A DNA stretch of 40,346 nt, taken from the UHGV virus genome UHGV-0260710. One strand, written 5' to 3'. The notes under the pieces are model-generated. The model had not been told where the DNA came from. It worked only from the letters and a program-made list of their open reading frames with translations, and did no database searches. Source of the stretch: a virus. Positions 452-33,544 of this stretch are shown here, piece by piece. A program made the translations under genes and the position numbers. Within the stretch, counting starts at the first letter, position 1. Each line of letters opens with the position of its first letter.

Positions 452-474
452 AGTCCCTATAGTGATAGTTAAGG
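452..474 (-). promoter_or_regulatory. Phage RNAP promoter (phi13-like), CCTTAACTATCACTATAGGGACT
   Basis: Family motif between gp12 stop and gp13 start; flanked by a perfect 10-bp inverted repeat GGGCCTATAG (444-453) / CTATAGGCCC (480-489). Confidence 0.7.
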
Positions 475-498
475 TAAATCTATAGGCCCTTCAATAAG

Positions 499-2856
499 TT
501 AGACGGAACGAGCTTTCTTAGCGTATGACGCCTCCCAGCCACAGCCAACGATGGACACTGGGGTAGGATAATCTGACTCTAAGGTTAGACTCGTGGTTAA
601 TGCGTTACCATTCATAGCGAAGCGATACTGACCATCCCCAATGTTGGTAGTCCCGATGGTTTGCTGACCAAGGGTGTACCCATTAAAGGTGTTCACGAAC
701 TCCCGCTCACCGTTTCTGACAATGAGTCTAAGAGCGCCAGTGTCCTTGTAGTTGACCCAAGCCCGACGAAGTTGTAGGCGTCCAGTGTCTTCAGACTGAG
801 TGCCACTCTCGTCTTCAATCTTAATAAGGAACCGTGAGAACTTGTAGGACATCAGATAAGACCGTCCGATGAACACTGTACGTCCCGACCAATCGCCATT
901 GAGCATAGCCACAGTTGAGATGTCGGTCAGTTCACCAAGGTCCACATAGGCACCTTGACTGTCAATCAGATAGTACCGACCGGGAGACGGAGCGTTTCCA
1001 CCATAAGCAGAACCAATGTCGACCGTAGTCTTATAGGTGTCAGCGTTATATGAGCCAATTGGGATTACCATAGACACCTTGGAGTCAACGTGGAGTCTAT
1101 ACGGCTCTAATGGAAAGTCAGTTGCCTCCTTGATGAACTTAAGGTGCTCAAGGTCCACGCCGCCTTGGTGCTGACGAACAATGAACATGGTAGAGCCAAT
1201 CGACGCAGACGCCAGAATCTTATCAGATTTAGGGAACTCCCAGTGCGACCAAGAGGCTTGAAGCTGTACGCCGTCCTTAAACAAGAACTTGTAGATGTAG
1301 ATTCGGTTGTATGCACCTGTAGAGTTGACGCAGATGTAGTTCTCAGTCCCTGTACCTTGAATGTCAAACACCCCGTTAGGGATATAGGACAGTACGTGGC
1401 CAGTGGTATCATCGGCATCCTTCACGTCAGACACATCTGCTACAGCGAAGTAGCGCTTAATGCTGGTGAATGACCCACGAGGAGCTGAGAAGAAGACTGA
1501 GCGTCCTACAGCGAACGGTCTGGCATTATCGCCTAAGGCAAACTCTGAGCCTACATCAAGCTGGATAGACTTCGAGGTAAGGACCCCTGAGCTTGTCATC
1601 ACGAACTGCACCTCATCTGACCAAAGTAGTAGCTGCTCACTAAACGGAACGGCATACTTAAGGATTGAGATTCTAGGGTGACTTACAGCTACGTCAATAG
1701 GATCATCATCACTCAGTGTAGCCACACTCTTAGGGAAGAACGCAAAGTAGCTGGCTGAACGGCTCATGATTACGTTCTCTCCTGACAAGAACCCAAGCCT
1801 GTTCCTGTAGAAGAACACATCGTTAATCGTAGCATCCACGAAGCTAGGCATAGGGTTTGTGTCATCATTACCAGCACCACGCTTAGACCAGTCCAGAGTC
1901 TTGAGCTCAAAGGAGCCGTCAGATTGTCTCACCAGAGCATGAGGCATTGTGGTGTTATCGAACCCAGTGACCACTCCCGGCTCTACCGTCTCCTTCCACG
2001 TCTTAGTGTTGGAGTCATACATCACGTAATATTCATCGGCGCTACTGTTGGTCTCACCTTGAATCTTAATGATGTACCCATTTGGAGCCGCAAGAGGCAA
2101 CTTAGAGATTGTTTGCACCGTGTCGAGTACTGGGCTGATTAACTGGTTAGCGTAGCCATCCTCCGTCTCCACTGAGTTAATGTCAGTCCCTGAAGGGGCA
2201 GTGATTAACAGGAAGCCAGACCCAAGGTCGAACGTGAAGGTAGGGTAAGCAGCAACAAGAAGGTCTCTCAGAGCTGCACCGATAGCCTGAGCATCAACCT
2301 TAGGAGGGTCATTCTCGGCATCATTACCTGCTGGCAACTTATGCGAAACCTTAACGCCTCCGTTGATTCCTACCTTAAGGGTGCGACCATACTGTCCACC
2401 GCGCAGGTTAATTAAAGCACGAGCTTTACGATTATAACCAGAGTGTGACTTCTCGCTCCCACCTTTAACAATAACCTTACGGTTCACGATGAACGTATAG
2501 TCTGCAACGGTAACGACACGGATGTCATCTCGCGGGTTGGAAGACTTAACGTAATCTACCGCACCGGACACTGAGTATTGATTACCACTCAAGTCAACTA
2601 CCTGAATGTTGGACCCGTTGAACACGATGTAATACTGCTCCTGCTCATCACGGTTAATCAGGTGGAACTTAGGGTTGATCCCAACGTCGATGTTAAGACG
2701 TCTCTTGAAGACTGTAGGTGGGCGCTTCTGGAGGCCATCACTCTCGGATGACCAGCAGTTAACCTGTGCCTCGCCTTGGTCTGAGAACCTCAGTATATCA
2801 GGCTGCTGGCTAATGCCACCTTTAAGGTTCTTGATTGATTGAGTAATTAGTGGCAT
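499..2856 (-). CDS. gp12: Tail tubular protein B (gp12)
   Basis: 785-aa ORF; size and position match T7 gp12 (794 aa); follows gp11. Confidence 0.9.
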   Translation of the reverse strand: MPLITQSIKNLKGGISQQPDILRFSDQGEAQVNCWSSESDGLQKRPPTVFKRRLNIDVGINPKFHLINRDEQEQYYIVFNGSNIQVVDLSGNQYSVSGAVDYVKSSNPRDDIRVVTVADYTFIVNRKVIVKGGSEKSHSGYNRKARALINLRGGQYGRTLKVGINGGVKVSHKLPAGNDAENDPPKVDAQAIGAALRDLLVAAYPTFTFDLGSGFLLITAPSGTDINSVETEDGYANQLISPVLDTVQTISKLPLAAPNGYIIKIQGETNSSADEYYVMYDSNTKTWKETVEPGVVTGFDNTTMPHALVRQSDGSFELKTLDWSKRGAGNDDTNPMPSFVDATINDVFFYRNRLGFLSGENVIMSRSASYFAFFPKSVATLSDDDPIDVAVSHPRISILKYAVPFSEQLLLWSDEVQFVMTSSGVLTSKSIQLDVGSEFALGDNARPFAVGRSVFFSAPRGSFTSIKRYFAVADVSDVKDADDTTGHVLSYIPNGVFDIQGTGTENYICVNSTGAYNRIYIYKFLFKDGVQLQASWSHWEFPKSDKILASASIGSTMFIVRQHQGGVDLEHLKFIKEATDFPLEPYRLHVDSKVSMVIPIGSYNADTYKTTVDIGSAYGGNAPSPGRYYLIDSQGAYVDLGELTDISTVAMLNGDWSGRTVFIGRSYLMSYKFSRFLIKIEDESGTQSEDTGRLQLRRAWVNYKDTGALRLIVRNGEREFVNTFNGYTLGQQTIGTTNIGDGQYRFAMNGNALTTSLTLESDYPTPVSIVGCGWEASYAKKARSV

Positions 2857-2865
2857 AGGCTCTCC

Positions 2866-3659: not shown

Positions 3660-3679
3660 AAGTCTCCTCTCACTTTAAG

Positions 3680-3720
3680 CAAAAAACCCCTCAAGCACCC
3701 GAAGGCACCCAAGGGGTTTC
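3680..3720 (-). terminator. Tphi-like intrinsic terminator after capsid gene
   Basis: Minus strand AACCCCTTGGGTGCCTTCGGGTGCTTGAGGGGTTTTTTG: GC stem-loop plus T6 run, near-identical in layout to T7 Tphi. Confidence 0.75.
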
Positions 3721-4999: not shown

Positions 5000-5022
5000 T
5001 CTCCCTATAGTGATAGTTTAGT
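5000..5022 (-). promoter_or_regulatory. Phage RNAP promoter (phi10-like), ACTAAACTATCACTATAGGGAGACC, +1 ~5005
   Basis: Best match to family consensus including GGGAGA initiation region; immediately upstream of capsid gene. Confidence 0.8.
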
Positions 5023-6005: not shown

Positions 6006-6028
6006 TGTTCCTATAGTGATAGTTTAGG
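6006..6028 (-). promoter_or_regulatory. Phage RNAP promoter (phi9-like), TAAACTATCACTATAGGAACACC
   Basis: Consensus motif overlapping the 3' end of the portal gene, as T7 phi9 does. Confidence 0.7.
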
Positions 6029-7592
6029 CTTGAGCCATGTCCTCACCAGCTCCTTGACCTACAGCAGCGCCCATGTTAGCACCAGCAGCAGACGCACCGT
6101 TGACCACAGCTCCTTGAGCGGATTGTTCAGCCATGCGCTGAATCTTCTCGTCCTGAGTCAGCAGTAGACCGGCAGTGTCAATGCCTAAGGCATTCAGTAG
6201 TCGCAGCTTCAGGGTCGGTAAGTTAATGTCTGGGTCCTGTTGCAGAGGTTGTAGCCCGGTCATCATGTTGACTGCCTGAGTAAGCTTCTCTAAGTCTTGG
6301 CCACGACCTAACGCTTCCAGACCAGTGGAGACCGTAGGCTCTACCGCCTCTTTAGGAAGGTCAGGAATCATGCCAGCAGACTGAAGCTGGTTCATCAGCA
6401 CACGGACGATAGGTAACTGAAGCTCTTGTGACTGTACTGAGTACACGCCACCTAAGGTAGCCTCCAGTTCGCCAGCAACATAACGAATCTCTTCAGCAGT
6501 GACACGCTCTGCATTACGCTGAACAGCACTATTAAGAAGGAAGGCCCAGCCTAAACGTTGCTCGATAGCGTCAGCCACCGACTTAGCAATCGTAAAGTCC
6601 TGACCTTTCGTAAGTTGCAGGAAGTTGATGTCCTCAACGCGACCAGCCACGAACTCACCTGTAGCCGCCTTGTTCAGACGTCGAGGTTGCGTGATGCCGT
6701 TCGGGTTAACGAGGCCCACCACCTTGGAGGCTACCTTAGCCATTTTGGTGATAGCTTCTGTAATCGTCTCCAGCGAGTTCAGGTCTCCCAGATACTCCTC
6801 GCAGTAAGAACGACCGTAGTCTTCACCATCCAGTCGAACCATTCGTACCGGGATGTATGGACATGCAGTCAGCGGGTAGGAACCATCGGTCCCTGTTACC
6901 TCAATGCCCTCCACTTCCTCGTAGCGTAGATACTCGTCGTCCTGACGGTAGATGTGCGTGTACACTTCCAGCTCGGTGTCAGGCTCATAGTCGTCTGCAT
7001 TGAGTTGAGACTTCACGTCTTCCGGTAGAGCACTAAACGCTACCTTGTCTAGAGTCACAATCTGTAAGATGTTACCGAACGCATCACGTTGAACAACGTA
7101 AGACACTAATCGGTACATCCGCATCGGACTATAGGTTCCTTGTTCTGGAGGAGGGATGTAGAGCAGACAGTTACCGGAGACGATAAGCTGCTTCAAAGCC
7201 TCGAACAATGGGACACGGAAACTGTTAGTCTCCATGTAGGCCATCAACACACGCTCGACCATAGCCAGCCCTTCGTCAACACGGGCAGCAGCCTCTGAGT
7301 CCTGACTCAAGGTCTTGGCCTCATATTCGGAGACTGTCAGTCGCATCCACGGTGACTGAGGGAATAACGCCAACATCAGCTTTGCAGCCAAGTTGTTCAA
7401 GCAGCGAGCACCTACAGCTTGCCACGGAGTGGTATACTCAGTAGACGAGTTGTCGGACTCCTTAGGAAACAGTGACGGGATAGTGACAGCAGCACAGTTC
7501 TGAGCGCGTGTCTCATATGGCTGTCTACCGTTCTTCAGTCGGTCATAGACCGCTTTGGCTCCTTCAGCAGCGAACCCTTCACGTTCAGCCAT
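6024..7592 (-). CDS. gp8: Portal (head-tail connector) protein gp8
   Basis: 522 aa; N-terminus aligns closely to T7 gp8 (GAK.VY.RLKN.R.PYETRAQNCA..TIPSLFPK.SDN.ST.Y.TPWQAVGAR.LNNLA.KLMLALFP). Confidence 0.95.
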   Translation of the reverse strand: MAEREGFAAEGAKAVYDRLKNGRQPYETRAQNCAAVTIPSLFPKESDNSSTEYTTPWQAVGARCLNNLAAKLMLALFPQSPWMRLTVSEYEAKTLSQDSEAAARVDEGLAMVERVLMAYMETNSFRVPLFEALKQLIVSGNCLLYIPPPEQGTYSPMRMYRLVSYVVQRDAFGNILQIVTLDKVAFSALPEDVKSQLNADDYEPDTELEVYTHIYRQDDEYLRYEEVEGIEVTGTDGSYPLTACPYIPVRMVRLDGEDYGRSYCEEYLGDLNSLETITEAITKMAKVASKVVGLVNPNGITQPRRLNKAATGEFVAGRVEDINFLQLTKGQDFTIAKSVADAIEQRLGWAFLLNSAVQRNAERVTAEEIRYVAGELEATLGGVYSVQSQELQLPIVRVLMNQLQSAGMIPDLPKEAVEPTVSTGLEALGRGQDLEKLTQAVNMMTGLQPLQQDPDINLPTLKLRLLNALGIDTAGLLLTQDEKIQRMAEQSAQGAVVNGASAAGANMGAAVGQGAGEDMAQA

Positions 7593-7603: not shown

Positions 7604-7852
7604 TTAAATAGAAATACCGCCACCAGAGGTGCGAGAGACCTGAAGGCTACGCTTACCGGAACGCTTCACTTTCTTCTCGTCAGATGCGGTTGCTTCAGTA
7701 TCCACATCCTCCACTTGGTCGTTCGGTACTTCCACTGGTGCTGCTGGGGTCTGAGCCTCAACAACCTTAGGCGCATCGTCAGAGCCAAGACCAACGGTCC
7801 CTAACGTACTTTTCACCACTTTCTTGAAAGCCTTACTGATTGATTTACCCAC
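7604..7852 (-). CDS. gp7.3: gp7.3-like small virion protein
   Basis: 82 aa, basic N-terminus, ends SGGGISI; position between gp7 and portal. Confidence 0.65.
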   Translation of the reverse strand: MGKSISKAFKKVVKSTLGTVGLGSDDAPKVVEAQTPAAPVEVPNDQVEDVDTEATASDEKKVKRSGKRSLQVSRTSGGGISI

Positions 7853-8492: not shown

Positions 8493-8765
8493 TTAATCAA
8501 ACTGAACGGTATCTTTCAGCTCACGACGCATAGCGATTGCAGAGTCGAGAGTGTCAGAACAATACTGGAGACCCTTGATGAACCCGGCAATGAACGCATC
8601 GCTGTAGCCTTGCTGCTTGAGGAGGCTGATAGCTCCCATCTTCTCAGCGTAGCTTGCGTTGAACAATACGTGCAGGAACTGGATGGCAGACTGGGAGATG
8701 TTAGGGACATCAAGTCTTTCTTCCTGTAACTGCTTAACAACGTTTTCAATAGCATTAAGCGCCAT
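8493..8765 (-). CDS. gp6.5-like protein
   Basis: 90 aa; first ORF after a consensus phage promoter, position of T7 gene 6.5. Confidence 0.5.
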   Translation of the reverse strand: MALNAIENVVKQLQEERLDVPNISQSAIQFLHVLFNASYAEKMGAISLLKQQGYSDAFIAGFIKGLQYCSDTLDSAIAMRRELKDTVQFD

Positions 8766-8826
8766 CTTGAATCTCCTCTTTAAGTTAAGACTAAAGTCTA
8801 TCTTATAGTCATATCTTAGGTCCTAA

Positions 8827-8849
8827 AGTCCCTATAGTGATAGTTTAGT
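8827..8849 (-). promoter_or_regulatory. Phage RNAP promoter (phi6.5-like), AAACTATCACTATAGGGACTTT
   Basis: Consensus motif in intergenic region. Confidence 0.7.
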
Positions 8850-10274: not shown

Positions 10275-10570
10275 CGTTCGAACTCCACCCGGAAGTTACC
10301 AAAGCTCGGCTGGTCAGAGTAGTTGCTCAAGTCTTCTTTCAGACCGTCGACAATGCCTTTCTTAAAGACAAGTTCGACTACAGCTTCCAGACCTTCCGTC
10401 ACACCGACCTCTACCATCTTACGCTCAAAACCAGTGGTCTTCTCTCCGTTGAGGACCTTACGGCTCAGCTCGCAGAGAGTCTTCTTGAAGTTCTCCACGT
10501 TTTCAGTTGACAACACAGCACCCAGCGAGAACGAAACTCGCATACGTTTGGTCATAGCCATTAGTGACAC
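10271..10570 (-). CDS. gp5.5: gp5.5-like protein (true start may be the internal MAMTKR Met)
   Basis: 99 aa; N-terminal MAMTKR.RVSF resembles T7 gp5.5. Confidence 0.75.
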   Translation of the reverse strand: MSLMAMTKRMRVSFSLGAVLSTENVENFKKTLCELSRKVLNGEKTTGFERKMVEVGVTEGLEAVVELVFKKGIVDGLKEDLSNYSDQPSFGNFRVEFER

Positions 10571-10842
10571 TCCTTCTTGACAAGTTTGCGCTCGCGGTTC
10601 GTCTTAATAACGTGCTCACGCTTAGGAATACATTGCAGATGCTCAACGTTACAGCACCCACGATTCAAGCACAAATGGTCTATCTCGTAGCCATCTGGTA
10701 TCGGTCCGCACTTCTGCTCCCAGACCCATCGGTGGAACATGAACGCGAACTTAGTTCCCTTTCGGTAGCTTCCCATAGAGTACCGGAAGTACACGTCATG
10801 GTTCCTCTTATGAGAGACGCAGACAATACATCCGGTAGGCAT
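10561..10842 (-). CDS. HNH endonuclease (gene 5.3 position); start taken at MPTGCIVC
   Basis: Cys-rich HNH motif (GCIVC..H....EIDHLCLNRGCCNVEHL); ATG at 10840-10842 lies 31 nt after DNA polymerase stop. Confidence 0.75.
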   Translation of the reverse strand: MPTGCIVCVSHKRNHDVYFRYSMGSYRKGTKFAFMFHRWVWEQKCGPIPDGYEIDHLCLNRGCCNVEHLQCIPKREHVIKTNRERKLVKKECH

Positions 10843-10873
10843 GGTGTGAAACCTCAAGGTCTTAGTGCGTGGG

Positions 10874-13045
10874 TCAATGGCACTCTTTCCATGTTGGTCC
10901 AATCTTACCCTCCGTATCAAGCTCACACTTGAAGTTATAGAATAGTCCAACCTCTCTCATGGCTTCCTGTGCGATTCGAACTACATCCTCGGCAATTTCC
11001 TGAGTACGACACGCGATTTGTAATTCGTCGTGAATCCAAGCCATTAACGCAAAGTCTCCATCCCAGCCGTTGCCATAACCAGCCTCCTCAAGTTTCTTCT
11101 CAGTCAGCACCATCCAGTGCTTACAGACTACCGCACCATCACCTTGAAGTAATGCGTTCAGTGCTGAGTGTGGAGACCGGATGTGGATACGGCGACCATC
11201 AAGTCCACGCAGCCAACGGCGTTTCCACTTGACGATGTTCTCTCCGTCTACCCACTTAGAGTCTGAGATTAACGTATTACTCACAGCTTCCCTGAGGTCC
11301 TTGATGGCTGGTGTACCCTCAATGAATTTCTTCATGAGAGCTGAACCTTCCTTCTTACCACCTCCGACTATCAGTCCAATCTTAGCAGCACCTGCACCAT
11401 ACAGGAACGCATAGATGAACGTCTTAGCGTTGTTACGGAAAGCATCATGTTCATGGCTCGACTTGTCGCGTGGGACGTTAGGTGCTAATCCAGCGTTGAC
11501 TGCGTTTGCCCAGTGGATGTCACCTTCGACCACAGTCTTGGCGTATTCACCACCATCAAACGGAGCAGCTCGGTTCCCCAGACAACGAAGCTCAAGACCT
11601 GAAGCATCCACACCTACTTGAATCCAAGGGTCTGGCTTACCATCCTTCTTGTTCCACGCTGCACCGAAAGCACCACGGCAAGTCTCACCATACGGAGCAC
11701 CATTAGCCGGGACCTGAGCCATGTTTGGTGAGCTATGGGTCGCACGTCCTGTTACTGCACCACATGGGTTGATTGAACCGTGCATACGTCCGTCTGGACC
11801 TACAAGTTTCAACCATGCGTTCTTACCTTCAGCCGCCTGACCGATGCGCTTCTGGACCACCAGATACTCACGGACCAGCTCTACGCAAGCCTGAGCCTCT
11901 GCGTCTGGTAATTTAACGTGTTCTAACGTCTCGTCATCGACTACAGGTTTCCCGGTGTCAGTGAAGTCCACAGGATCCCAGCCACGCTCCATCAGGACTT
12001 TCGCTAAGTGGTCTCCGCTTCCCGGATTAAACTCAACGTAAGTGATTGGAGTGAATGGCGCTCCTTCCATCGTGTCTCGTGAGTCGAACTCGCAAGGCTC
12101 CAGACCTAAGCGTTGAGCTTTGTTCTTCGGCTTCTTGAATACTGACCCGACCTTAGGATACACGACTCGTGGATACTTCGGAAGGTCCTTACCTGTCCGT
12201 GGGTGCTTGAAGAACTCCTTGCCACCCTTCGGTGAATACCAGCTACCGAAAGTCGAACGCAGCTTGTCCAGCAACTCTGCACGTTTGACGGTGAGTTCAC
12301 GATATAAGCCTTCGACCATCTCGGTATTCATCGGATAGCCGTTACGTTCCATCTTCGCACAGGTCCACGCAGCATCATGTTCCAGACGCAACGCATAAAT
12401 CTGTTCGAAAGCGAACTGTTCAGACTGGAAGTAATACTTGTCAGTCAGGAACTTCTTGAACAATGACAGTGTGACCACAACGTCCTGAACGTTATAGTCC
12501 AGCATCTCCTGAGACGGGAACAACCATTCGTCCCCCGCCTTATATTCGATACCTTCGGCCTTGCACTTGGCAACGTAATCGTGTTTGTACTCACCCTTCA
12601 TCTCACCGAGACGATAGCCCCAAGCCTCAAGAGACTGGCGTCCCATCATCTTAGGTGGCAGACGACCAGCTTTCACCGCGCCCATGTCTGAGAACTTAAT
12701 GTTTGGATACATCAAGCGGCCCAGCACCAAGGTATCAATCATCTTGTGTTTCGGGAAGTTAAATCGTTTCCCAAAGTACAAACGCTTCAGCTTGTCTATA
12801 GCCGGGACGTCATAGTTGATACCGTTATGGAAGACCAGCATACCCGTAGGCGTTGCAGCAATTTCTTCCACCTTCTGTACATACTCTTTGAAGCCACCGA
12901 CGATACCGACCATCGGCGCTACCCCATACTTAAGGGTCTCATTCGACTCGGCATTAATCAGGACCCCACAATGGAACTGGGACACGGTGTCAAGGAGACC
13001 GTTGGTCTCGATGTCCGAACCCCAAATATCCTTAAGGTCAAACAT
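10874..13045 (-). CDS. gp5: DNA polymerase (gp5, family A)
   Basis: 723 aa; long collinear matches to T7 gp5 (FHNG..YDVPA, IDTLVL.RL, EAWGYRLGEMKGEYK, YNVQDVVVT, GSW..PKGG, RTGK.LPKYPR, GRATH, DASGLELRC, NAKTFIY.FLYGAG, KGLDGR..H.RSPH.ALN.LLQ, WIHDE.Q..CRT, LDTEGK.GP.W..CH). Confidence 0.95.
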   Translation of the reverse strand: MFDLKDIWGSDIETNGLLDTVSQFHCGVLINAESNETLKYGVAPMVGIVGGFKEYVQKVEEIAATPTGMLVFHNGINYDVPAIDKLKRLYFGKRFNFPKHKMIDTLVLGRLMYPNIKFSDMGAVKAGRLPPKMMGRQSLEAWGYRLGEMKGEYKHDYVAKCKAEGIEYKAGDEWLFPSQEMLDYNVQDVVVTLSLFKKFLTDKYYFQSEQFAFEQIYALRLEHDAAWTCAKMERNGYPMNTEMVEGLYRELTVKRAELLDKLRSTFGSWYSPKGGKEFFKHPRTGKDLPKYPRVVYPKVGSVFKKPKNKAQRLGLEPCEFDSRDTMEGAPFTPITYVEFNPGSGDHLAKVLMERGWDPVDFTDTGKPVVDDETLEHVKLPDAEAQACVELVREYLVVQKRIGQAAEGKNAWLKLVGPDGRMHGSINPCGAVTGRATHSSPNMAQVPANGAPYGETCRGAFGAAWNKKDGKPDPWIQVGVDASGLELRCLGNRAAPFDGGEYAKTVVEGDIHWANAVNAGLAPNVPRDKSSHEHDAFRNNAKTFIYAFLYGAGAAKIGLIVGGGKKEGSALMKKFIEGTPAIKDLREAVSNTLISDSKWVDGENIVKWKRRWLRGLDGRRIHIRSPHSALNALLQGDGAVVCKHWMVLTEKKLEEAGYGNGWDGDFALMAWIHDELQIACRTQEIAEDVVRIAQEAMREVGLFYNFKCELDTEGKIGPTWKECH

Positions 13046-13318: not shown

Positions 13319-15356
<2,038 letters not shown>

Positions 15357-15406: not shown

Positions 15407-15429
15407 CATCCCTAAGGTGATAGTTTAGG
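15407..15429 (-). promoter_or_regulatory. Variant phage promoter (TAAACTATCACCTTAGGGATGG; two mismatches at -4/-3)
   Basis: Conserved upstream half of the promoter family; upstream of the HNH 3.8-like gene. Confidence 0.45.
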
Positions 15430-17792: not shown

Positions 17793-17815
17793 CTGTCCTA
17801 CAGTGATAGTTTAGG
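17793..17815 (-). promoter_or_regulatory. Variant phage promoter (TAAACTATCACTGTAGGACAGA; -3 G)
   Basis: Family motif overlapping the gene 2 3' end, upstream of SSB gene (T7 has phi2.5). Confidence 0.55.
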
Positions 17816-18642: not shown

Positions 18643-18665
18643 TTGTCCTATAGTGATAGCTTAGG
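18643..18665 (-). promoter_or_regulatory. Phage RNAP promoter (TAAGCTATCACTATAGGACAAC)
   Basis: Family motif immediately downstream of the early terminator. Confidence 0.65.
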
Positions 18666-18699: not shown

Positions 18700-18738
18700 A
18701 CAAAGCAAAGAAACCCAGCAGTCATAAGACCACTGGGT
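18700..18738 (-). terminator. Candidate early (TE-like) intrinsic terminator
   Basis: Minus strand ACCCAGTGGTC-TTAT-GACTGCTGGGT (10-bp stem with two G-U pairs) followed by TTTCTTTGCTTTG; placed right after the HNH stop, as T7 TE follows the early region. Confidence 0.5.
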
Positions 18739-18741
18739 TGT

Positions 18742-19224
18742 TTATAATGAGTCTCTTAAGGCTACCGCCTCGGCTATGGTCTTGGCATATAGGACCACTC
18801 GCTCTCCGTTGACCACCTTCTTGATACAGTAAAGCTCTCGACCTTTCACCTTTGAGATGTGACGTTCTCCGGTAGTGTTGGTGGACATCTGGCCTTTGTT
18901 CTGGTTGTTCTCTGAGTGAGACACCAGTCGCAGGTTGGACATCCTGTTATTAGAAGGGTCCCGGTCAATGTGGTCAATCTCCATGCCGTCTGGTATGGGA
19001 CCATATGTCATCTCCCATATTACCCTATGAACCTGTAGATGCTTGCGGCCCCACGGTGTCCTGACGTTTATCGTCCAATAGCCGGACTTCTTCTTACTGC
19101 CTACCTTTCGTCCAGAGTGGAGGGCCAGCCCGGAGGCCGACCTTTCGTCCACTTTAAATCTTGACTGTAGGATTATCCTCAGTTCCACGCCACTGGTCGA
19201 ACGAGGGATGTCGCAATGAGCCAT
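18742..19224 (-). CDS. HNH homing-endonuclease-like protein (extra relative to T7)
   Basis: 160 aa; [41 protein letters not shown] core; 5' end overlaps the ligase 3' end (an in-frame GTG at 19150-19152 is an alternative start). Confidence 0.8.
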   Translation of the reverse strand: MAHCDIPRSTSGVELRIILQSRFKVDERSASGLALHSGRKVGSKKKSGYWTINVRTPWGRKHLQVHRVIWEMTYGPIPDGMEIDHIDRDPSNNRMSNLRLVSHSENNQNKGQMSTNTTGERHISKVKGRELYCIKKVVNGERVVLYAKTIAEAVALRDSL

Positions 19225-20176: not shown

Positions 20177-20439
20177 TATGCTTTGCTCCATGTGTCGAGT
20201 TGGTCAGCGAGACCGTTGAGGCAGTCTGTTGCGGTATTATACAGCACGTCTTCATCGTAGTGCGCGAAGGTCTCAAGCGCTAGGATGTTACCAGCTCGGT
20301 CCTCCACCCTTAGTTGCATGCACTCTTGGCGTGACACATGGTCTTGAAACTCCCGAGATATAACAGCGAAGTCTAACTGATAAAGCCTGTTACACGCTGC
20401 TCTGAAAGCGTTGAGGTTGCCACTATAAAGTCTGCTCAT
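20176..20439 (-). CDS. gp1.2: gp1.2-like protein (host dGTPase inhibitor family)
   Basis: 87 aa; collinear with T7 gp1.2 (RLYSGNL.AF.AA.N.L.QLD.AVI, R.EDR.GN, F.H.DEDVL.N..TD.LN...DQL..W). Confidence 0.85.
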   Translation of the reverse strand: MSRLYSGNLNAFRAACNRLYQLDFAVISREFQDHVSRQECMQLRVEDRAGNILALETFAHYDEDVLYNTATDCLNGLADQLDTWSKA

Positions 20440-20693: not shown

Positions 20694-20716
20694 TAATCCT
20701 ATAGTGATAGTTTAGG
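20694..20716 (-). promoter_or_regulatory. Phage RNAP promoter (TAAACTATCACTATAGGATTAG)
   Basis: Family motif upstream of gene 1.1, as T7 phi1.1A/B. Confidence 0.7.
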
Positions 20717-20790: not shown

Positions 20791-20991
20791 TCATTTGGTT
20801 GCCGCCTCTTTAAGGACTTGCTCGTGCGTCTGCTCCACCATCTTAACCAGCAACTTGAATGGGACGTTAAGCTGCTTTGACATCTCGGTAGGGATGACAG
20901 TGGTCTTCACCAGACCCTTGCCGTTGTGTTCTGTTACGGTCACGATTTGGGTCCCACCCTTAACGCCAGTCTGCTTGTGTGCAAATTCCAT
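20791..20991 (-). CDS. Hypothetical protein (66 aa) after RNAP
   Basis: ORF in the conserved orientation; no recognised motif. Confidence 0.45.
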   Translation of the reverse strand: MEFAHKQTGVKGGTQIVTVTEHNGKGLVKTTVIPTEMSKQLNVPFKLLVKMVEQTHEQVLKEAATK

Positions 20992-21247: not shown

Positions 21248-23929
21248 TTAAGCGAATGCAAAGTCTGAAGACAGGATGTCTTCGATATTCAGTTTGCCTT
21301 TCTTCGGAAGCTCAGGCAGCTTGTCGCGCTGGCTCTCGTGAAGCTGGTATTCGAACTGCTCGTAGAAGTCAAGCAGCACGTCGTTGTCGCGGTATGTCTC
21401 GACCATCGTCTCACGGACACCACGGAACAGATACTCAGCGTCAGCCGGGATGGTCCCGAAGCTATCATGAATCACTGCGAACGACATCACGCCATATTTG
21501 CGGTGAGTGTGGACTACAGTCTTGCGTAGGTGGCTACCATCTTGTGAGTGGACGAAGTTCGGGCTAATGCCTGACTCCTGCTTGTGCTTGTCCAACTCTT
21601 TCTTCGTGCCTTTATTGACGGTAGGCTGAAGGTTGAATGACCCTAAGAACATCAGGTTCAGACGAGTGGTATCCTTCTTGCGGTATTCCTGCCAGACCGG
21701 GAAACCATCAGGTGTTACCCAGTGTACAGGAAGGCAAGGCTTCAGGATTTCCCCGGTCTTTTTGTCCTTCACTTCAGCAGCCAGCAGCTTGGCAGCACCC
21801 TGAAGCCACTTCATCGCGTCAACAGCAGCAACTACGGTCACACTCACAGCTTCCCAAATCATCTTAGCCATGAAGCGAGACGCTTGGCTTGGCTCGGTGA
21901 ACATAGCGCCAGACCCTGAGTCAATCGCTGGAATCACGATGTCCTCGTACACTTGGTCTGCGAAGCCGTACTCTTTCGACCCATAGGCCAGAGTCATGAC
22001 TGAACGCTTAGTGACCTTTCGTGACATACCGTAGGTCAGCCACTGGCGGGCCAGCTCTCGTGTCCCCAGCTTGATACGTTCGGTAATCTCACCCGTTTTC
22101 TTGTCCTCGTGAGTTACCATCTCGTTGTCCGTGCCGTTAACCAGCAGGACTTTAAGCTCTTCCTCAATGCGGTCAGACACTATGCGGTAGATGTCTTGTA
22201 CCTTACCGGAAGGCGTCAGGTTTACTGCATGTCCACCGATGTGGTCACGAAGCATCGCGCTAAAGTGCTGAATCCCAGAGCAGGACCCATCGAATGCTAT
22301 CGGCAGCGAGCAGGAGTAAGACAATCCGTGATGCATTACGCCAGCATACTCGAAGCAGAACGCTAGGAAGCAGAACGGAGAGTCTAACTTACCCCACCAC
22401 TCAATGCTGTCCATCGGTGCCTTAGCGGTAGCCATGATGTTGTCGTGGTTATCTTCCACCCACTTGATGCGCTCCTCGAAGGTTACTTTATCAATACCCG
22501 CACAGTTTGCACCGTGGACCTTCAGCCATTTGAAACCATCAGCACCAATAGGCTTACCGACTGCCAGAGTCAGGAGACCCTTTTGCATGTCGTTACCCTG
22601 AGGGTTGAACATCGGAACAGCGTAGACACGACCGCGCCAGTCCATATTGTACGGGAACCAGATGGCCTTGAACTGAGAGAACTTGTTCGCTTGGTTAACG
22701 ATAAAGCTCAGTGACAATCTACGCGACTGCCGAGCCTTCTCTCGGCGGTAGATACCAGCAGCAGCCTTCTTCCATGCCTTAAGTTCCTCTTCAGTCTCAC
22801 CCGCATAGTCTTCAGGCTTCAGTGGCTCCATCTGAGGGATGTCATCAATAGGCGTGTTGTTCAACTTCTCGACCATGTTCACCACGTCCAGAACCTTCTT
22901 GTTCACTTTCCAAGGTGTATTCTGGATGATGTTAACAGCGTCATATACTTCAGGCATGTACACGTCTTCGTAACGTGCCACCGCAGACTTAGACCCTAAG
23001 CGAATCAGTGGTAGTGGTCTGCGTCCTTTGGCCCAGTACCCACCTCCTACGACACCAGTCCACGGCTTAGGTGGAACGACGCAAGGCTGGTAGACTGGAG
23101 CGATACCCGCAAGGCTGAAGCCTCGTTGCGCCATCTTCTTGACCCAGAAGTCTGACAGGTGGACCATCTCGACGTCAGCCGCTGCATTGCCAGCACCGTA
23201 ACGCTTAAGCTCGACCAGTTGTGTTGACTGGATGATAATCTCAAGCATCTTGATTCCAACGTGGACAGCCTCGGTTGGACTCCAAGTCCCCCACGCATCT
23301 TCCAGTTGGCCTTGCTCAAGCATGGATGCCTCAACCGCTTGCATGTAGGCTTTCTTGTAGGATGCCCCAGCTCGCTTGTTCAGGTTCTCGGCTATCGCCT
23401 TCTTGAAGTGCTCCTTCTCCTTGTCACGGATGCGACCGAAGCGGATTTCGTCCTCAAGTGTGCGACCTATCGCGGATGCCATCGGTGTAATCGGTATCCC
23501 TTCAGGCTTGACCAGCTTGGAGAGTATGACCTTCAGTATGATTACCGCAGCAGACTCGCAAGAGATACGCAGAGAGCGGTCCTTGACGGCCTTCTCTTCA
23601 GTGCTCAACATGGTGAACGCTACGCTAGGACGAGAGGTTGACAGCTTCCCGTCTGGGCCTTCATGCCACTCCCTGACGGCTTGCGCAATCTTAGGGACCA
23701 GAGTCTGCATCAAAGGCTTGGCGACCTGATTGTCTGCCAGTTCCCCGCGCTCAGTCTGTCGCTCAAGGTTCTTGATGAAACGTCGCTCGCCTTCAGTGTA
23801 TGCCTCATGCTCAAGCTGAAGCTGTTTGACTGCAAGGTCTTGCCCGTAATGGTCAGCCAGCAGGTTAAACGGCTCAATAGCGTTAGACACATCAGAGAAG
23901 TCGTGTTTGTCAATAGAGATGACGCTCAT
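21248..23929 (-). CDS. gp1: Single-subunit DNA-directed RNA polymerase (T7 gene 1 family)
   Basis: 893 aa; extensive collinear identity with T7 RNAP (DHYG, FQPCVVPPKPWTG..GGGYWA.GRRPL, RYEDVYMPEVY, WFPYNMDWRGRVYAV.MFNPQGNDM.KGLLTLA.GKPIG, SPFCFLAFCFEYAGV.HHGLSY.CSLP.AFDGSCSGIQHFSAMLRD, VTKRSVMTLAYGSKE.GF, HKQESGI.PNFVHSQDGSHLRKTVV, IHDSFGTIPADA, ends SDFAFA). Confidence 0.98.
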   Translation of the reverse strand: MSVISIDKHDFSDVSNAIEPFNLLADHYGQDLAVKQLQLEHEAYTEGERRFIKNLERQTERGELADNQVAKPLMQTLVPKIAQAVREWHEGPDGKLSTSRPSVAFTMLSTEEKAVKDRSLRISCESAAVIILKVILSKLVKPEGIPITPMASAIGRTLEDEIRFGRIRDKEKEHFKKAIAENLNKRAGASYKKAYMQAVEASMLEQGQLEDAWGTWSPTEAVHVGIKMLEIIIQSTQLVELKRYGAGNAAADVEMVHLSDFWVKKMAQRGFSLAGIAPVYQPCVVPPKPWTGVVGGGYWAKGRRPLPLIRLGSKSAVARYEDVYMPEVYDAVNIIQNTPWKVNKKVLDVVNMVEKLNNTPIDDIPQMEPLKPEDYAGETEEELKAWKKAAAGIYRREKARQSRRLSLSFIVNQANKFSQFKAIWFPYNMDWRGRVYAVPMFNPQGNDMQKGLLTLAVGKPIGADGFKWLKVHGANCAGIDKVTFEERIKWVEDNHDNIMATAKAPMDSIEWWGKLDSPFCFLAFCFEYAGVMHHGLSYSCSLPIAFDGSCSGIQHFSAMLRDHIGGHAVNLTPSGKVQDIYRIVSDRIEEELKVLLVNGTDNEMVTHEDKKTGEITERIKLGTRELARQWLTYGMSRKVTKRSVMTLAYGSKEYGFADQVYEDIVIPAIDSGSGAMFTEPSQASRFMAKMIWEAVSVTVVAAVDAMKWLQGAAKLLAAEVKDKKTGEILKPCLPVHWVTPDGFPVWQEYRKKDTTRLNLMFLGSFNLQPTVNKGTKKELDKHKQESGISPNFVHSQDGSHLRKTVVHTHRKYGVMSFAVIHDSFGTIPADAEYLFRGVRETMVETYRDNDVLLDFYEQFEYQLHESQRDKLPELPKKGKLNIEDILSSDFAFA

Positions 23930-23997: not shown

Positions 23998-24020
23998 TGA
24001 GTCCTATAGTGATAGTTAAG
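23998..24020 (-). promoter_or_regulatory. Phage RNAP promoter directly upstream of the RNAP gene (TTAACTATCACTATAGGACTCA; +1 ~24003, 73-nt leader)
   Basis: Family motif between the last small early ORF and the RNAP ATG; leader contains an 11-bp direct repeat AAGTGAAAGAC x2 and an AAGGA RBS. Confidence 0.6.
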
Positions 24021-24026
24021 TCAGAA

Positions 24027-25039: not shown

Positions 25040-25197
25040 TGTTGGTTATCCTCAGCGTGCAAGCTGTCGTGTATGCGCTTGCGGCCCTCGTAGACCGCCT
25101 TCAGGTGACGTATAGCCGCATCGTGGTTTAACTGCCCGGTCTTGACCATAATCCGGGCGTTGGTGACGTGGTGCTGGCATAGACCGTAAGTTACCAT
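25036..25197 (-). CDS. Small hypothetical early ORF (53 aa), translationally coupled to Ocr
   Basis: ATG shares the A of the Ocr TGA stop (TGATG); hand translation [53 protein letters not shown]. Confidence 0.35.
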   Translation of the reverse strand: MVTYGLCQHHVTNARIMVKTGQLNHDAAIRHLKAVYEGRKRIHDSLHAEDNQQ

Positions 25198-25709
25198 CAC
25201 TCGCAGTCATCCTCAGCAGACGCAGGGTCGAACACTACGTTATCGTTGATGTCCTCGACCTTCAGGTGGCGACCTATCGCATAGTGATCTTTGGCACATG
25301 CAGTAGCGACATCAAGTGATACAGCTTGCTCAACGAATAGGCCTGTTTTAGCGTCTACTACCCAGTATTCTCCCTCCTCGTAGCAGCGCTCTTCAGGCTC
25401 GAACCAGACCACATCAGAGCTATTAGACACATCGTTATACAGTGCCTCATAAATGCGAGCTTGTAGGATGCGCGTTACGTCCTTGGTATCAGGCATCAGC
25501 CCAGAGTCTTCGAACTCATGGTCAATACCATCAGCAGCCATCACCGTGAAAATCTCGTGGTAATAGTGCGGAACCATATTGTCTACGACTTCATGTAGCG
25601 CATCGTAATAATCATCGCCTTCAGCTATTTCGTCGTACTGAATGCGCTCGTTAAATGCTTCAACGGTTGCAGCCAGCAGCTCATAGTATGCGTTAGCGTT
25701 ACGTTCCAT
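25197..25709 (-). CDS. ocr: Ocr-like anti-restriction protein (gene 0.3) with C-terminal extension
   Basis: 170 aa; core [36 protein letters not shown] matches T7 Ocr (117 aa); about 55 extra C-terminal residues. Confidence 0.85.
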
Positions 25710-27117: not shown

Positions 27118-27140
27118 CTTCCCTATAGTGATAGTTAAGT
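27118..27140 (-). promoter_or_regulatory. Phage RNAP promoter near the right genome end (phiOR-like), TTAACTATCACTATAGGGAAGACC
   Basis: Family motif downstream of the last gene, reading toward the genome end. Confidence 0.65.
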
Positions 27141-27263: not shown

Positions 27264-27612
27264 CTATTGCATCCTGTAAGCTATCGGTAGCATATCTATA
27301 GGTAACACCGTCCTTCGTCTGGCTAGTCTTCCACTTACCTGAACACCTCTTAATACTGTGGGCCAGCACCTCATGTCCTGACTCTTTCCTCTTCTTACAG
27401 CATTAACCGAGTTCTGAGACTTTGTGGCAAGCCGTAGGTTTTCTCTACGATTGTTCAACTTGTTCCTGTCAATATGGTCAACAACCATTCCATCAGGCAC
27501 TGGTCCGTAGAACATCTCGTACACTAAGATGTGCACAAAATGCTCATGGACCTTGTAGTATTTACCGACCAGACCCGACTATACAGCCGGGAACGCTATC
27601 GTCGTACTTCAT
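27264..27612 (-). pseudogene. HNH endonuclease paralog split by a frameshift (remnant or requires recoding)
   Basis: GTG-initiated 90-aa ORF (27264-27536) holds the HNH core HILVYEMFYGPVPDGMVVDHIDRNKLNNRRENLRLA; 15 codons in another frame upstream (MKYDDSVPGCIVGSGR, with TAGGAGGATAA-ATG RBS) plus the open HNH frame (..GKYYKV..) align to the N-termini of the intact paralogs (..[13 protein letters not shown]..); coordinates +/-1. Confidence 0.45.
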
Positions 27613-27623
27613 TTATCCTCCTA

Positions 27624-29390
27624 TTAGTGGAACGTAATGTATGACCCTAGTCCCAGCTCGTCGTCCGTATCGTGAGTTACCCGGACCCCATTGTCCCAGA
27701 ACTCAGTGTGGATGGACTCGAAGCCTTTCCGTGGGTTCTCCATCTGTTCCTCCAGCCACTCCTCAGTGACTTCACGTTCGCCCTTGTTGGCATCCTTAGC
27801 CATAGACTCAACGAAGAACTGTACACCGATAGCCAGCGCATCAAGTCGGTCATCGTGTGCCAAGGCGCCACGTTCACGAGAGATACGTGTCATCTGGTAG
27901 AAGAGAGAGTAGATAGGGTTACGAACACCATCCTTATCAGAGGCCGACTGGTAGTCTTGGACGATAGCAGCAGCGTTAACGATAAGTCGGTGAGACCCCA
28001 TGATAGGCTCCAGAACGTCACAGATGCGTAGTTCTTTCTGCCCCTTACTCTTCACTTCAGTTACAGCCGCAGGATGTATACGGGCCGCTACAGGCTTGAA
28101 TAGCTCAAGGTACATACCATCACCGAAGTTACCCTCAATGACGTATTCGTTGACCTTCCACTTACGACCAATCTTAGCCAGTGCTTCAAGCGTAGAGTCT
28201 TCATAACCACCACGCATGCCGCCAACTTCCATAGCGAAGATGTAGCCGTTGAGCTGGTACAGTACCGCATATCCAGTTTCATCCTTACCACGACCACTAG
28301 GGTCAATGACCAGAATCTTCTGGGTGTACGAACTGAAGGCAGAACCTACAGTCTGATACGTGTGGTATGAGTCTCCCATGAGTCCAACGTTAGGAACGTC
28401 CTCACGCTTGTTCTGAGGGTTTGGCAGCCATTGGTAGACCATTGGGCTGGACGCTGGGTCCAAGTCTGCTACGATAAGGTCACGGAGCTTCAGAGGGTAC
28501 TTCTCGGCATCACTCAGGTTCGGGTTAAGCATGAACTGTAGAGCGAAGCCAGCTTTACCGTAGGACAGCTCACGTTCCTTCAGGTCAGTATCGTCGAATC
28601 GAACTTCATCGGTCGGACGCCAGTAGTAGGCCTCAGGGTCCTCTTCAAGCTCTGCCTGAAGCATCGGTGCCAGACGGTAGCCGTAAGACTGCCAGTCCTT
28701 CTTATCACGTGGATAACGAGCAGGCCAGATAGTAGTGGTGTACCCACGGCCTTCCAGCTCACGATACAAGGTCATCTCGTTCTGAGGAGTACCCAGATAG
28801 ATGATTGTACCTCCCGGCTTCAGGATAGCGTCGAACTCTTTCACAAGCTCTGATAGACGGTCTCGTGCAGCCTGAGTCGCTGAGTTGTTCGGAACCTCCA
28901 CGTCATCGGCAATCAGGATGTCAGCACGACTACCAGTCAACTGACCAGTGATACCAACGGACTTAACCGAAGGTGAGTGGTCTGGCTTGGCGGGTCCAAC
29001 GTCAAAACTGATAACCGCATCTCGCTGTCCCTGCTTAGGTTTGAGTTCCTGAAGCTGAGGCATGAGGTCGATGATTCGCTTGATGAAGATGGAGTTAGCA
29101 TCGGCTCGTTCCTTTGATGCCGACACAATCATGAACTTCAAGTCTGGGTTGTTCCATAGCTTCCAGACCACAAAGCCACAGGTCAGAAACGACTTGCCAA
29201 TACCACGGAAAGCCTGAAGGATGAAGCGGCGATTATCCCCAGCAGCCAGCTTCTTACACATATCTATCTGGCAGCGGGTTGGAACCGGAAGGCTTAGCGC
29301 TTTCCAGAGAACGAAGATGAAGAACACGAAGTCGTCCTGCATCCTTTGGGTCATTTCTGCCTGTCTTTCAGCTGGTGTTTTCTTAGACAT
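27624..29390 (-). CDS. gp19: Terminase large subunit (gp19)
   Basis: 588 aa; near-collinear with T7 gp19 ([124 protein letters not shown]). Confidence 0.95.
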
Positions 29391-29823
29391 AGAGTCCCTC
29401 CAACATTAGGTCCCGGACAGCGATAGCCTCCTCTAAAGTGGGACGTGTTGTGCGCATACGGACTCCCTTACGCATAACCTCGATGGCGTAGCCGTTCTGG
29501 TGGAACGATACGTTCTTAACTCCAGTCTTTGAGTCAGAATGACCTGAGGTGTTGCAGGAGTTCGCGCTTGAAGTAACTAGCCGGAGGTTGTCCAGCCTGT
29601 TGTTAGTTCGGCAACGGTCGATGTGATCAATCTCCATGCCTTCTGGTATGGGACCGTTGGTTAGCTCCCAGATTACCCGATGAGCCAGCAGGAGTCCATG
29701 ACGTCTAGTTCCTACCTGATAATACCCGTGGTTTCCAACACACCCAACGTCCTTACCTGAACGAAGTGACTTCAGGCCAGACTTACTGGACTCATCATAA
29801 GTATACGAATCACTGAGCATCAT
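29383..29823 (-). CDS. HNH homing-endonuclease-like protein overlapping the terminase start
   Basis: 146 aa; [41 protein letters not shown]; 3' end overlaps TerL ATG by 8 nt; absent at this position in T7. Confidence 0.85.
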
Positions 29824-30973: not shown

Positions 30974-33475
30974 TTAAGAGTTTAAAATAGAAGAATATTT
31001 AGTAACAACATTACCAGATACAGGTGTCGAATCTATAGCAGGTCTTGCTGTTGCCCTGATATTTAGCCCAATAACCCCTGAATATGCTACTGACTGCGTT
31101 CCCGCATAACGGTAACATGCAAGAGTTCCTCCGGACTTATGAGTCCACTCAACGTTTCCATTTGCTTGAAACAGAAAGATATTAGCAGATGTTGTAGTTG
31201 TCATGTCTCCTGTGGAAACTACATTTACTGGCTCAGTGGTGGCAACTTTGATCAAGTGATACCCGGCAGGGCTTGTTACACCTCCACTCAACGTCAGATT
31301 TACATTCGTTTTACGCAATGCAATCAAACTACCATAAGCATTGCACACAATACCTCCTAAGCCACGAATTGTGGCGGATGGTAACTCTGTATCTTCCGTT
31401 AAATTTATACTTCCTGCGTTGGTATAAACGTCGTTTATTTCAAGCATTCTGCAAATTTTGGCAGCATGTTTCAAAGATTTTAGACCACGCGCTCCATTGA
31501 AACCCCAATTTTCATCGTTACCGTTAACTGGGTCGATGTATAACGTTGAAGGTGAAACGCCTGTAACTTCATTAACTAAATCCCATTTCCCAAGTTTTCC
31601 GTACTGGAACTGGCCATTGTTAGGATTTCGTATGTTGACTACAGCTCCAGAGTTTATGCCGTCAAGGAACCTGTAACCGTTGAACATCATGTAACCGTGA
31701 ATATCTACAACACTGCGACCCTTAACGCAGTTCTTGACGTAGACCACTGAACTGTTTGCTATACTTCCGTCTTGAATGAAAAGACCATTTAGACGGATGT
31801 CAGCGTCTGAGTTGATAATATAGAAACAATGTTTCGCCTTACCACCCGTGGCTTCCATGTGACAACCGTCAACCTTAAGCCCACCGTTACTGTTGGCATC
31901 CCCTTGGTTAACATACATGAATGAGCAGGTTTCTGTTACACAATACCTGAACTGCACAGAACTGCGTCCGTACTGTGTAATTGCGACATCGCCGGTTTCG
32001 TCAAAATCTTCCGGTTTAAAAATTACCTGTTCTGAATAAGTTGAATCCTGTCCAAGTCGAGCAATGTAAGCGTTTTTCACCTCAGAGCCGCCGTTTTGCT
32101 CGTAGAAAACAGCACCTTGAGTCTTGTATAGAATCTTAGGTGTTGTGTGAACACTGCCCCAAGCAATACTGTGAAGCATACCAACCTTTGGAATTCTGGC
32201 GGTTGATGCTGTGCTTCCTGGTGTGTTCTCACCAATGCTTAGATTGCTAGTTGTGCATCCTGCGGCACCTAACCAACGAAGCCCTAACAATGTTCCTGGC
32301 TTTGTGATAATAGACAGGTTTTCAATATCGATATGGCGAGCGCCTGTTCTTACTTCACCACTATCAATTTGTGAGCCTGTTGGCAAAAACATTGGGTCAG
32401 AGTTTAATGACCATGTTGACCCAGATTTAAGATAGACATACGTACTAACAGCAGCCATGTTACCTTCACCAGAAGGCGGGTTGAAGTAAAAACCTTGCTG
32501 TACGATTCGGCGGAAATAAGAGTAACCGGGCTGGACAATCTGCACGCCGGGCGGGATAAAGATTGTCTCTGTGTGCATGTACAGGCCGCGCAAAACAACA
32601 CGCTTTGCTACTACATCCAAGTGTGGGTTAAGTTCTGTTGCTGTGTCTGTAAATGAAATCGGCATGTCGTTGATGTATTTAAACATAGCCTTTAATGCCT
32701 GTGTATCGTCAGAAATCCCATCACCAATAGCTCCGAATTGCTCAGGGGTTACATCATTTAATACATCTGCTAATTTACCCGATGGATTAATTCCGATTAA
32801 TTCAGCCCCGTCATTATTCATTAGGCTTCCTCTAAGTGATGCATCACCAACACTAATCCACGCACCAAGACCAACACCACCAGCAGTTTCAGGAGTTGAA
32901 CCCTCTGGAACGTTCTTTGGAAGCGTACCATCCCAGCGGTAATACTCACCATCCTCTTCCCATAGCAGGACCTCGTTCCATGTTGTAACGTTGAAGCCTT
33001 TCTCGAAGGAGCGACGGGTAATATAGCCAACTAGACCAGCTGCCTTGATACGCTCAGCGATTCGGCGTGCTTCGTCCTCGCTATCCTTAGCGTTGCCAGC
33101 AGAGCTACCAGCAGCATCGGCATATTCCTTCGCTAAGTCAACAGTTTGGTCTCGACCTTCTTCTGCAATATGGATAGCCTGAAGCTCTGCATTGGTCAGG
33201 TCACTAGCTGTCAACACTGAACCATTCCTGAAGTCTACCACTAAGTCAGTTCCAGTCTGACGGTGAATACGAACGATGTCGAAACCTGATTGGTCAACCA
33301 ACATCTCAATAATCGTTGGATTAAGGAATCGGTAATCTCGACCGACTTCCAGTACACGGTTCAGGGTAGGGTTAGAGCTATTCACCAGCGTAACAACAAC
33401 AAACGTTCTGGCTAGGTAGTCGAACTCAATCCTGTACTGAGTGTTTCCTGAAGGGAATTGTGTAATCGTGGACAT
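30974..33475 (-). CDS. gp17: Tail fibre / tail spike (gp17): T7-like N-terminal adaptor plus C-terminal pectate-lyase-like (beta-helix) depolymerase-type domain
   Basis: 833 aa; first ~150 aa align to the T7 gp17 N-terminus (EFDYLAR.FVVVTL, DYRF, DGS.L.A.DL..A..Q..H.AEE.RD.T.D); rest unrelated to T7, contains [19 protein letters not shown], typical of pectate-lyase-3 tailspikes; 3' half visibly AT-rich. Confidence 0.85.
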
Positions 33476-33521
33476 TATGCCTCCTTTGTGATTTAAACGG
33501 AGACCTATGGTAGCGCCTCCC

Positions 33522-33544
33522 GTTTCCTATAGTGATAGTTTAGT
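33522..33544 (-). promoter_or_regulatory. Phage RNAP promoter (phi17-like), TAAACTATCACTATAGGAAACG
   Basis: Family motif overlapping the gp16 3' end, upstream of the tail fibre gene as in T7. Confidence 0.7.

Follow-up and report, generated by a model that had tools for sequence, protein, structure and literature searches.

A K1F-like phage genome, UHGV-0260710, carrying eleven predicted promoters of the documented Kayfunavirus set

The K1F promoter/polymerase pair and its counterpart in UHGV-0260710

A phage RNA polymerase with the specificity of phage K1F, together with its promoter, has been in synthetic-biology use as the orthogonal pair T7(K1F)/PK1F since 2012. In that year, Temme et al. 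grafted the specificity loops of phage subfamilies into T7 RNA polymerase and swapped positions -12 to -7 of the T7 promoter for the consensus of each subfamily (PMC3458549). On its own promoter, T7(K1F) gave a 17-fold induction, and the pair was orthogonal to T7, T3, and N4 (PMC3458549). The K1F variant of Temme et al. carries 632S, 754S, 756N, and 761V and has ACTAT as its cognate promoter (PMC11880802, Table 2; the published PK1F sequence that we used was taken from this table and covers -12 to -8 only). The K1F loop and PK1F were reused by Segall-Shapiro et al. in 2014 (PMC4299498). For a native enzyme, Takatsuki et al. (2025) purified the polymerase of the Kayfunavirus Ro45lw, defined a minimal promoter, ACTTAACTATCACTATAGGGA, mapped the transcription start to G, and showed that the enzyme transcribes in vitro (PMC12272871). 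In a genome report from 2026, the promoters of a further Kayfunavirus are described as CTWAACTATCACTATAGG repeats (PMC13298934). Here, we compare with these systems a family of eleven 23-base repeats in the virus genome UHGV-0260710, a stretch of 40,346 nucleotides (nt) that was analysed over its full length (hereafter, the window).

Judged by their sequences, the eleven repeats are T7-type promoters for the phage's own single-subunit RNA polymerase, and they are the documented promoter set of K1F and the Kayfunaviruses, which makes the polymerase/promoter pair an already known one. The closest correspondence is to phage EcoDS1, the record of which (EU734172) annotates eleven "phi" promoters: one each before genes 1, 1.1, 4, and 10, and phi1.6, phi2.5, phi6.5, phi9, phi13, phi17, and phiOR. 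These features and the window sites match one-to-one by position. Nine of the eleven 23-mers are identical, as are all of the 14-base cores. The two exceptions are phi1.1, which has a single-base change, the only one, at -17, and phi6.5, for which the EcoDS1 annotation is shifted by one base. All eleven sites recur in K1F (NC_007456), which differs in phiOR, where it has GGAAGA and the window has GGGAAG. All three genomes share the consensus (A/C)CT(A/T)AACTATCACTATAGG(G/A), the total of eleven sites, and the gene positions at which these lie. The match extends to Ro45lw: its minimal promoter equals the first 21 bases of the window phiOR and differs from phi13 only at -17.

We are close to certain that the window is a complete K1F-like genome of the T7 group (Kayfunavirus, Studiervirinae), presented as its reverse complement and circularly permuted, and that the eleven sites serve as its middle and late promoters. 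A megablast search against phage records returned ~93-95% nucleotide identity over ~90% of 25 kb to many Kayfunavirus genomes (EcoDS1, CLB_P1, LM33_P1, Vec13, and others). With the EcoDS1 proteins as tblastn queries, 47 of 53 were found, in the T7-type gene order from 0.3 to 19.5 and on the minus strand. In descending coordinates, genes 0.3 to 12 occupy 25709 to 502 and genes 14 to 19.5 occupy 40313 to 26782; gene 13, with its start at 422, is interrupted by the window start and resumes at the window end. The terminal repeats of EcoDS1 and K1F (~180-bp, direct) map once in the window, at 26543-26364 on the minus strand. A single copy indicates a circularly closed assembly in which the repeat has been collapsed and the circle cut inside gene 13 (ends 1 and 40346). 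At ~93-96% DNA identity to the nearest records, the genome represents an isolate distinct from K1F and EcoDS1.

Detection and placement of the eleven sites

A search of the window for the core ACTATCACTATAGG, allowing up to three mismatches, returned 12 matches compared with 3.2 +/- 1.75 in shuffled sequences, and none of 100 shuffles reached 12. Eleven of the matches are on the minus strand, at the places listed in a first-pass annotation of this genome: eight are exact, those at 17797 and 18647 have one mismatch, and the one at 15411 has two. The twelfth, at 26970 with three mismatches, is the sole match on the plus strand; as ~3 matches are expected, we rejected it as chance. From the eleven 23-mers, we derived a scan matrix of 23 columns (-17 to +6), on which the sites score 31.4-38.3 bits, or 24-37 bits in leave-one-out scoring. 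A scan of both strands with this matrix, extended across the circular junction, found no further copy; the runner-up, at 8798-8820 on the minus strand, reached 13.0 bits, and the junction itself scored below zero. Both approaches hence bear out the eleven minus-strand copies that the first-pass annotation had reported. Ten of its coordinate pairs are right, and one, 23998-24020, was one base out of register and should read 23999-24021.

On the minus strand, the consensus of the eleven sites is (A/C)CT(A/T)A(A/G)CTATCAC(T/C)(A/G/T)TAGG(G/A). The sites do not vary at positions -13, -11 to -5, and -2 to +2, and -12 to -8 reads ACTAT in all but phi1.6, which has GCTAT. The 15-mer AACTATCACTATAGG is also present in many IMG/VR contigs of ~39-40 kb, in several copies per genome; because these loci were picked by an exact match to the 15-mer, the invariance of -13 to +2 among them is partly circular, and we did not rely on it.

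All eleven sites are on the coding (minus) strand and lie 30-186 nt before start codons, those of genes 1, 1.1, 1.6, 2.5, 3.8, 6.5, 9, 10, 13, 17, and 19.5. The nine T7-like gene positions that the first-pass annotation had named are correct, and two sites were missing from it, the one before gene 1.6 and the one before gene 1, a position at which T7 has no phi promoter. In the early region, the pre-gene-1 promoter (23999..24021, ACTTAACTATCACTATAGGACTC, 34.5 bits) has its predicted +1 at 24004, ahead of the gene 1 ATG at 23929, and equals the annotated EcoDS1 "phi" at 2244-2266 and the K1F site at 2475. The phi1.1-equivalent promoter (20694..20716, CCTAAACTATCACTATAGGATTA), with a predicted +1 at 20699 and the gene 1.1 ATG at 20623, has its EcoDS1 counterpart in the "phi" at 6034-6056, from which it differs at -17 alone, and its K1F counterpart at 5553.

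Further down the genome, phi6.5 (8827..8849, ACTAAACTATCACTATAGGGACT; predicted +1 at 8832) precedes the gene 6.5 ATG at 8765 and corresponds to the out-of-register EcoDS1 phi6.5 at 16991-17013. The highest-scoring copy, phi9 (6006..6028, CCTAAACTATCACTATAGGAACA, 38.3 bits), overlaps the end of gene 8; its predicted +1 is at 6011, the gene 9 ATG is at 5908, and the same sequence is EcoDS1 phi9 (19813-19835). For phi10 (5000..5022, ACTAAACTATCACTATAGGGAGA), the predicted +1 is at 5005 and the gene 10 ATG at 4897, and the EcoDS1 equivalent is the "phi" at 20819-20841. The phi13 promoter (452..474, CCTTAACTATCACTATAGGGACT; predicted +1 at 457), identical to EcoDS1 phi13 at 25367-25389, precedes the gene 13 ATG at 422. 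Overlapping the end of gene 16, phi17 (33522..33544, ACTAAACTATCACTATAGGAAAC) has its predicted +1 at 33527 and the gene 17 ATG at 33475 and is identical to EcoDS1 phi17 (33040-33062). Lastly, phiOR (27118..27140, ACTTAACTATCACTATAGGGAAG) lies near the physical right end, with a predicted +1 at 27123 and the gene 19.5 ATG at 26937, and is matched by EcoDS1 phiOR at 38500-38522. The 13-bit runner-up of the matrix scan, CCTAAGATATGACTATAAGATAG (8798-8820, minus strand), is a promoter-like degenerate copy in the gene 6.5 leader, 34 nt 3' of the phi6.5 start, and GACTTTAG occurs twice in the same leader.

The three other sites deviate from the consensus core. The phi1.6 promoter has a G at -12 (18643..18665, CCTAAGCTATCACTATAGGACAA; predicted +1 at 18648; gene 1.6 ATG at 18618); it is placed just downstream of the early terminator and equals EcoDS1 phi1.6 (7725-7747). 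The phi2.5 promoter has a G at -3 (17793..17815, CCTAAACTATCACTGTAGGACAG; predicted +1 at 17798; gene 2.5 ATG at 17753) and equals EcoDS1 phi2.5 (8719-8741) and the K1F site at 8500. The phi3.8/4 promoter has a C at -4 and a T at -3 (15407..15429, CCTAAACTATCACCTTAGGGATG; predicted +1 at 15412) and has identical counterparts in EcoDS1 ("phi", 11107-11129) and K1F (10867). It is followed by an open reading frame (ORF) for an HNH endonuclease of 121 amino acids (aa) (15356-14991, ATG at 15356; Pfam HNH_3), the equivalent of T7 gene 3.8, and then by the primase/helicase gene 4. For two of these deviant copies, 15411 and 17797, the first-pass annotation had described the changes (at -4/-3 and at -3, respectively) correctly; the third, 18647 with G at -12, had been overlooked. 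That the copies at 15407 and 17793 are weak, as was proposed there, is plausible.

A stronger proposal would be that the deviant copies at 18643, 17793, and 15407 are decaying or non-functional relics and that the eight exact copies alone are active. Their mismatches at -12, -3, and -4/-3 and their leave-one-out scores, the lowest of the family at 24-30 bits, would fit such decay. In T7, positions -4 to -1 are the melting region, and this region is touched by the mismatches at -3 and at -4/-3. However, K1F and EcoDS1 retain each of these substitutions at the corresponding promoter (phi1.6 with G at -12, phi2.5 with G at -3, and phi3.8/4 with C at -4 and T at -3), although the surrounding genomes differ by ~5-10%. 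The three copies also occupy the positions of phi1.6, phi2.5, and phi3.8, which belong to T7's weaker class II. Conservation of specific variants indicates selection, not random decay, and we consider relics unlikely; the pattern points to deviant copies that are maintained as tuned middle-gene promoters. The window thereby adds evidence that the phi1.6, phi2.5, and phi3.8/4 variants are conserved across the genus.

Polymerase, promoter specificity, and a proposed transcription programme

Gene 1 (21248..23929, minus strand) encodes a single-subunit RNA polymerase of 893 aa, with Pfam matches to RNA_pol (2.5e-106) and RPOL_N (6.9e-15). The protein is 99% identical to K1F gp1, 99% to EcoDS1 gp1, 94% to the Ro45lw polymerase, 64% to T7, 64% to T3, and 59% to K11, and an alignment with T7 shows that it retains the catalytic D537, D812, and Y639. 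Its specificity loop (T7 residues 739-770), YRKKDTTRLNLMFLGSFNLQPTVNKGTKKELD, is the same in the window, K1F, and EcoDS1; the thirteen positions at which these three polymerases differ are all outside the loop. Compared with T7, the loop keeps R746, N748, and Q758 and carries the changes Q754S, R756N, and I761V, and the N-terminal A/T-recognition loop is longer and unlike that of T7. The difference in specificity from T7 polymerase that had been predicted from the promoters is matched by these loop changes. The Ro45lw polymerase has the same residues as the window at R746/N748/S754/N756/Q758/V761; it differs at 51 amino acids, among them M750L and, in the distal loop, a single T-to-S change. 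As for practical value, the window offers one more natural variant of the K1F polymerase, 99% identical and with an identical loop. Its 754S/756N/761V and the ACTAT element are those published for the K1F variant (PMC11880802).

The window promoters share with those of T7 the 23-bp architecture and an identical stretch from -8 to +2 (TCACTATAGG), and phi10 is identical to the T7 consensus from -8 to +6. They differ at -12 to -9, where T7 has CGAC and the window ACTA, and at -17 to -13, where T7 has TAATA and the window (A/C)CT(A/T)A. On the window matrix, the top score in the T7 genome is 5.8 bits, which is consistent with distinct recognition. In T7, R756 and Q758 are reported to take part in reading the -9/-8 base pairs (Cheetham, Jeruzalmi and Steitz 1999); an A in place of C at -9 is in keeping with the loss of R756, and the two may be linked. 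Ten of the eleven positions have T7 counterparts (1.1, 1.6, 2.5, 3.8, 6.5, 9, 10, 13, 17, and OR), and the promoter before gene 1 is absent from T7. Conversely, T7 has 17 annotated promoters versus 11 in the window, which is without equivalents of T7 phiOL, 1.1B, 1.3, 1.5, 4c, 4.3, and 4.7. In the left-end region (26543-25710), the matrix found no phiOL equivalent, and EcoDS1 annotates none either.

The first-pass annotation had taken this difference from T7 to imply another promoter specificity and a potentially orthogonal pair; neither a specificity unique to this genome nor an undescribed pair is supported. Its reading of -12 to -8 as ACTAT instead of T7 CGACT was right; the T3 element, which it gave as CCCTC, is actually ACCCT. 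A new specificity class, distinct from every characterised T7-group pair, would accord with an ACTAT element found in neither T7 nor T3, with a polymerase whose identity is just 64% to the T7 and T3 enzymes and 59% to the K11 enzyme, and with a gene 1 for which no phage record exceeds ~96.5% DNA identity. But EcoDS1 carries these very 23-mers as annotated promoters and K1F has them as well, the window polymerase has exactly the specificity loop of K1F, the pairing of the K1F loop with ACTAT has been in print since 2012 and has been taken up again since, and the 2025 work on Ro45lw characterised a native Kayfunavirus enzyme on the same promoter. A new class is thus very improbable. The promoter is that of K1F and the Kayfunaviruses (EU734172; PMC3458549; PMC11880802; PMC12272871), documented for a characterised T7-group polymerase, and the finding matters little beyond the correct annotation of a Kayfunavirus genome with eleven K1F-type promoters and T-phi-like and TE-like terminators.

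Two considerations weigh against carrying the published properties of the K1F pair over to the window in full. The Temme set has been described as having "a limited extent of orthogonality" (PMC11880802), and insulation from T7 is not absolute. In addition, the evidence for activity comes from relatives (Ro45lw, with its 94% identical polymerase) and from a T7 chimera with the K1F loop, and not from the window enzyme. Initiation at the G of TATAGG and poor use by T7 or T3 polymerase, shown for relatives only, are predicted for the window by analogy.

That the repeats are instead some other dispersed element (packaging, replication, or recombination sites, or RNase III signals) is very improbable: some T7 phi promoters (phi1.1A/B, phiOL, and phiOR) also serve replication initiation, so that by analogy a secondary replication role of phiOR or phi1.1 is possible, and a degenerate second copy follows the phi6.5 start, but the core TCACTATAGG is that of T7, every copy is co-oriented with the genes at a short distance from a start codon, the same sequence drives in vitro transcription by a 94%-identical polymerase, and the phi6.5 leader (degenerate copy included) and the phi1 leader showed no significant RNase III-type structure, folding no better than shuffles (z = 0.01 and -0.28, respectively).

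With the eleven sites read as K1F-type promoters, two terminators would complete the transcription map. A TE-like intrinsic terminator (18712..18739, minus strand), a 12-bp stem and then a T-run, lies between the ligase/HNH block and phi1.6, at the same position as EcoDS1 TE (7668-7697); T7 likewise has its TE terminator before phi1.6. A T-phi-like hairpin followed by a U-run (3678..3720, minus strand) has a 17-bp stem, AAACCCCUUGGGUGCC-UUCG-GGUGCUUGAGGGGUUUUUUG, and lies between genes 10 and 11, the same place as the EcoDS1 "phiTE" (22122-22157) and T7 Tphi, which also follows gene 10. Its stem, ...CUUGAGGGGUUUUUUG, is one that we take to be close to that of T7 Tphi.

By analogy with T7, the host RNA polymerase would transcribe the early region from the left end at ~26.5 kb down to TE at ~18.7 kb, where the TE-like terminator would end the host-polymerase early transcripts, and the gene 1 polymerase would be made. 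This polymerase would bind each 23-bp promoter as the T7 enzyme does, with its N-terminal loop reading the A/T-rich -17 to -13 and its specificity-loop beta-hairpin (T7 739-770) reading -12 to -7 in the major groove; the TATA part (-4 to -1) would be melted, and the RNA would begin at the first G of GG. Reading of ACTAT (-12 to -8) by a loop with S754, N756, and V761 would make the pair largely non-cross-reactive with T7 and T3. The deviant copies, before the middle (DNA-metabolism) genes 1.6, 2.5, and 3.8/4, and the consensus copies, before the structural genes 6.5, 9, 10, 13, and 17, would mirror T7 class II and class III, respectively, and the T-phi-like hairpin after gene 10 would attenuate late transcription. 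We infer these steps from T7, with support from the positional correspondences, and likewise infer the activity of these particular copies, their relative strengths, and the residue-to-base contacts.

One site stands outside this T7 scheme. The pre-gene-1 promoter (23999-24021) is directly upstream of the polymerase gene, with a 75-nt leader, and is conserved in K1F, in EcoDS1 (annotated "phi"), and, with one mismatch (TAAAGG instead of TATAGG), in Ro45lw. No phage promoter before gene 1 is annotated in the T7, T3, and K11 records, which have a host promoter or nothing there. It is conceivable, though on present evidence rather doubtful, that this copy gives Kayfunaviruses a positive feedback in which the polymerase transcribes its own gene, a loop that T7, T3, and K11 appear to be without. 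We found no functional study of the promoter in the literature searched. Because EcoDS1 already annotates it, only its functional significance could be new and not its existence; if the promoter is active and that significance undescribed, it would mean that the early-to-middle switch of a classic model system has been rewired specifically in this genus.

Genes that differ from K1F and EcoDS1

Compared with K1F and EcoDS1, the window has another tail-fibre C-terminus and additional HNH endonuclease ORFs. The tail fibre/spike protein gp17 (30974-33475, minus strand; 833 aa) combines a T7-tail N-terminal domain with a Tail_spike_N domain. Its alignment with EcoDS1 gp17 is confined to the first ~406 residues, at 57% identity, and the product of K1F gene 17 (32666-35860) is longer, at ~1,064 aa. 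This pattern implies that the receptor-binding part of gp17 has been swapped, which would confer a different host capsule or O-antigen specificity.

An HNH_3 homing-endonuclease domain was found in five ORFs, all on the minus strand (14991-15356, 10561-10950, 18742-19224, 27264-27536, and 29383-29823; E values of 1e-18 to 5e-23). Several of them were not matched in the tblastn search with EcoDS1 proteins, such as those after the ligase gene, between genes 18.5 and 19, and after gene 19. Their distribution suggests that the HNH_3 ORFs are mobile insertions that vary among Kayfunavirus isolates.

Two early proteins also depart from their EcoDS1 equivalents. The homologue of ocr (gp0.3; 25197-25709, minus strand) has 170 aa versus 110 aa in EcoDS1; its first ~109 residues are 94% identical, and the remainder is an extension. 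The DNA ligase (19154-20191, minus strand) is just 66% identical to that of EcoDS1, whereas for most other proteins the identity is 93-99%. On these comparisons, the early region appears mosaic.

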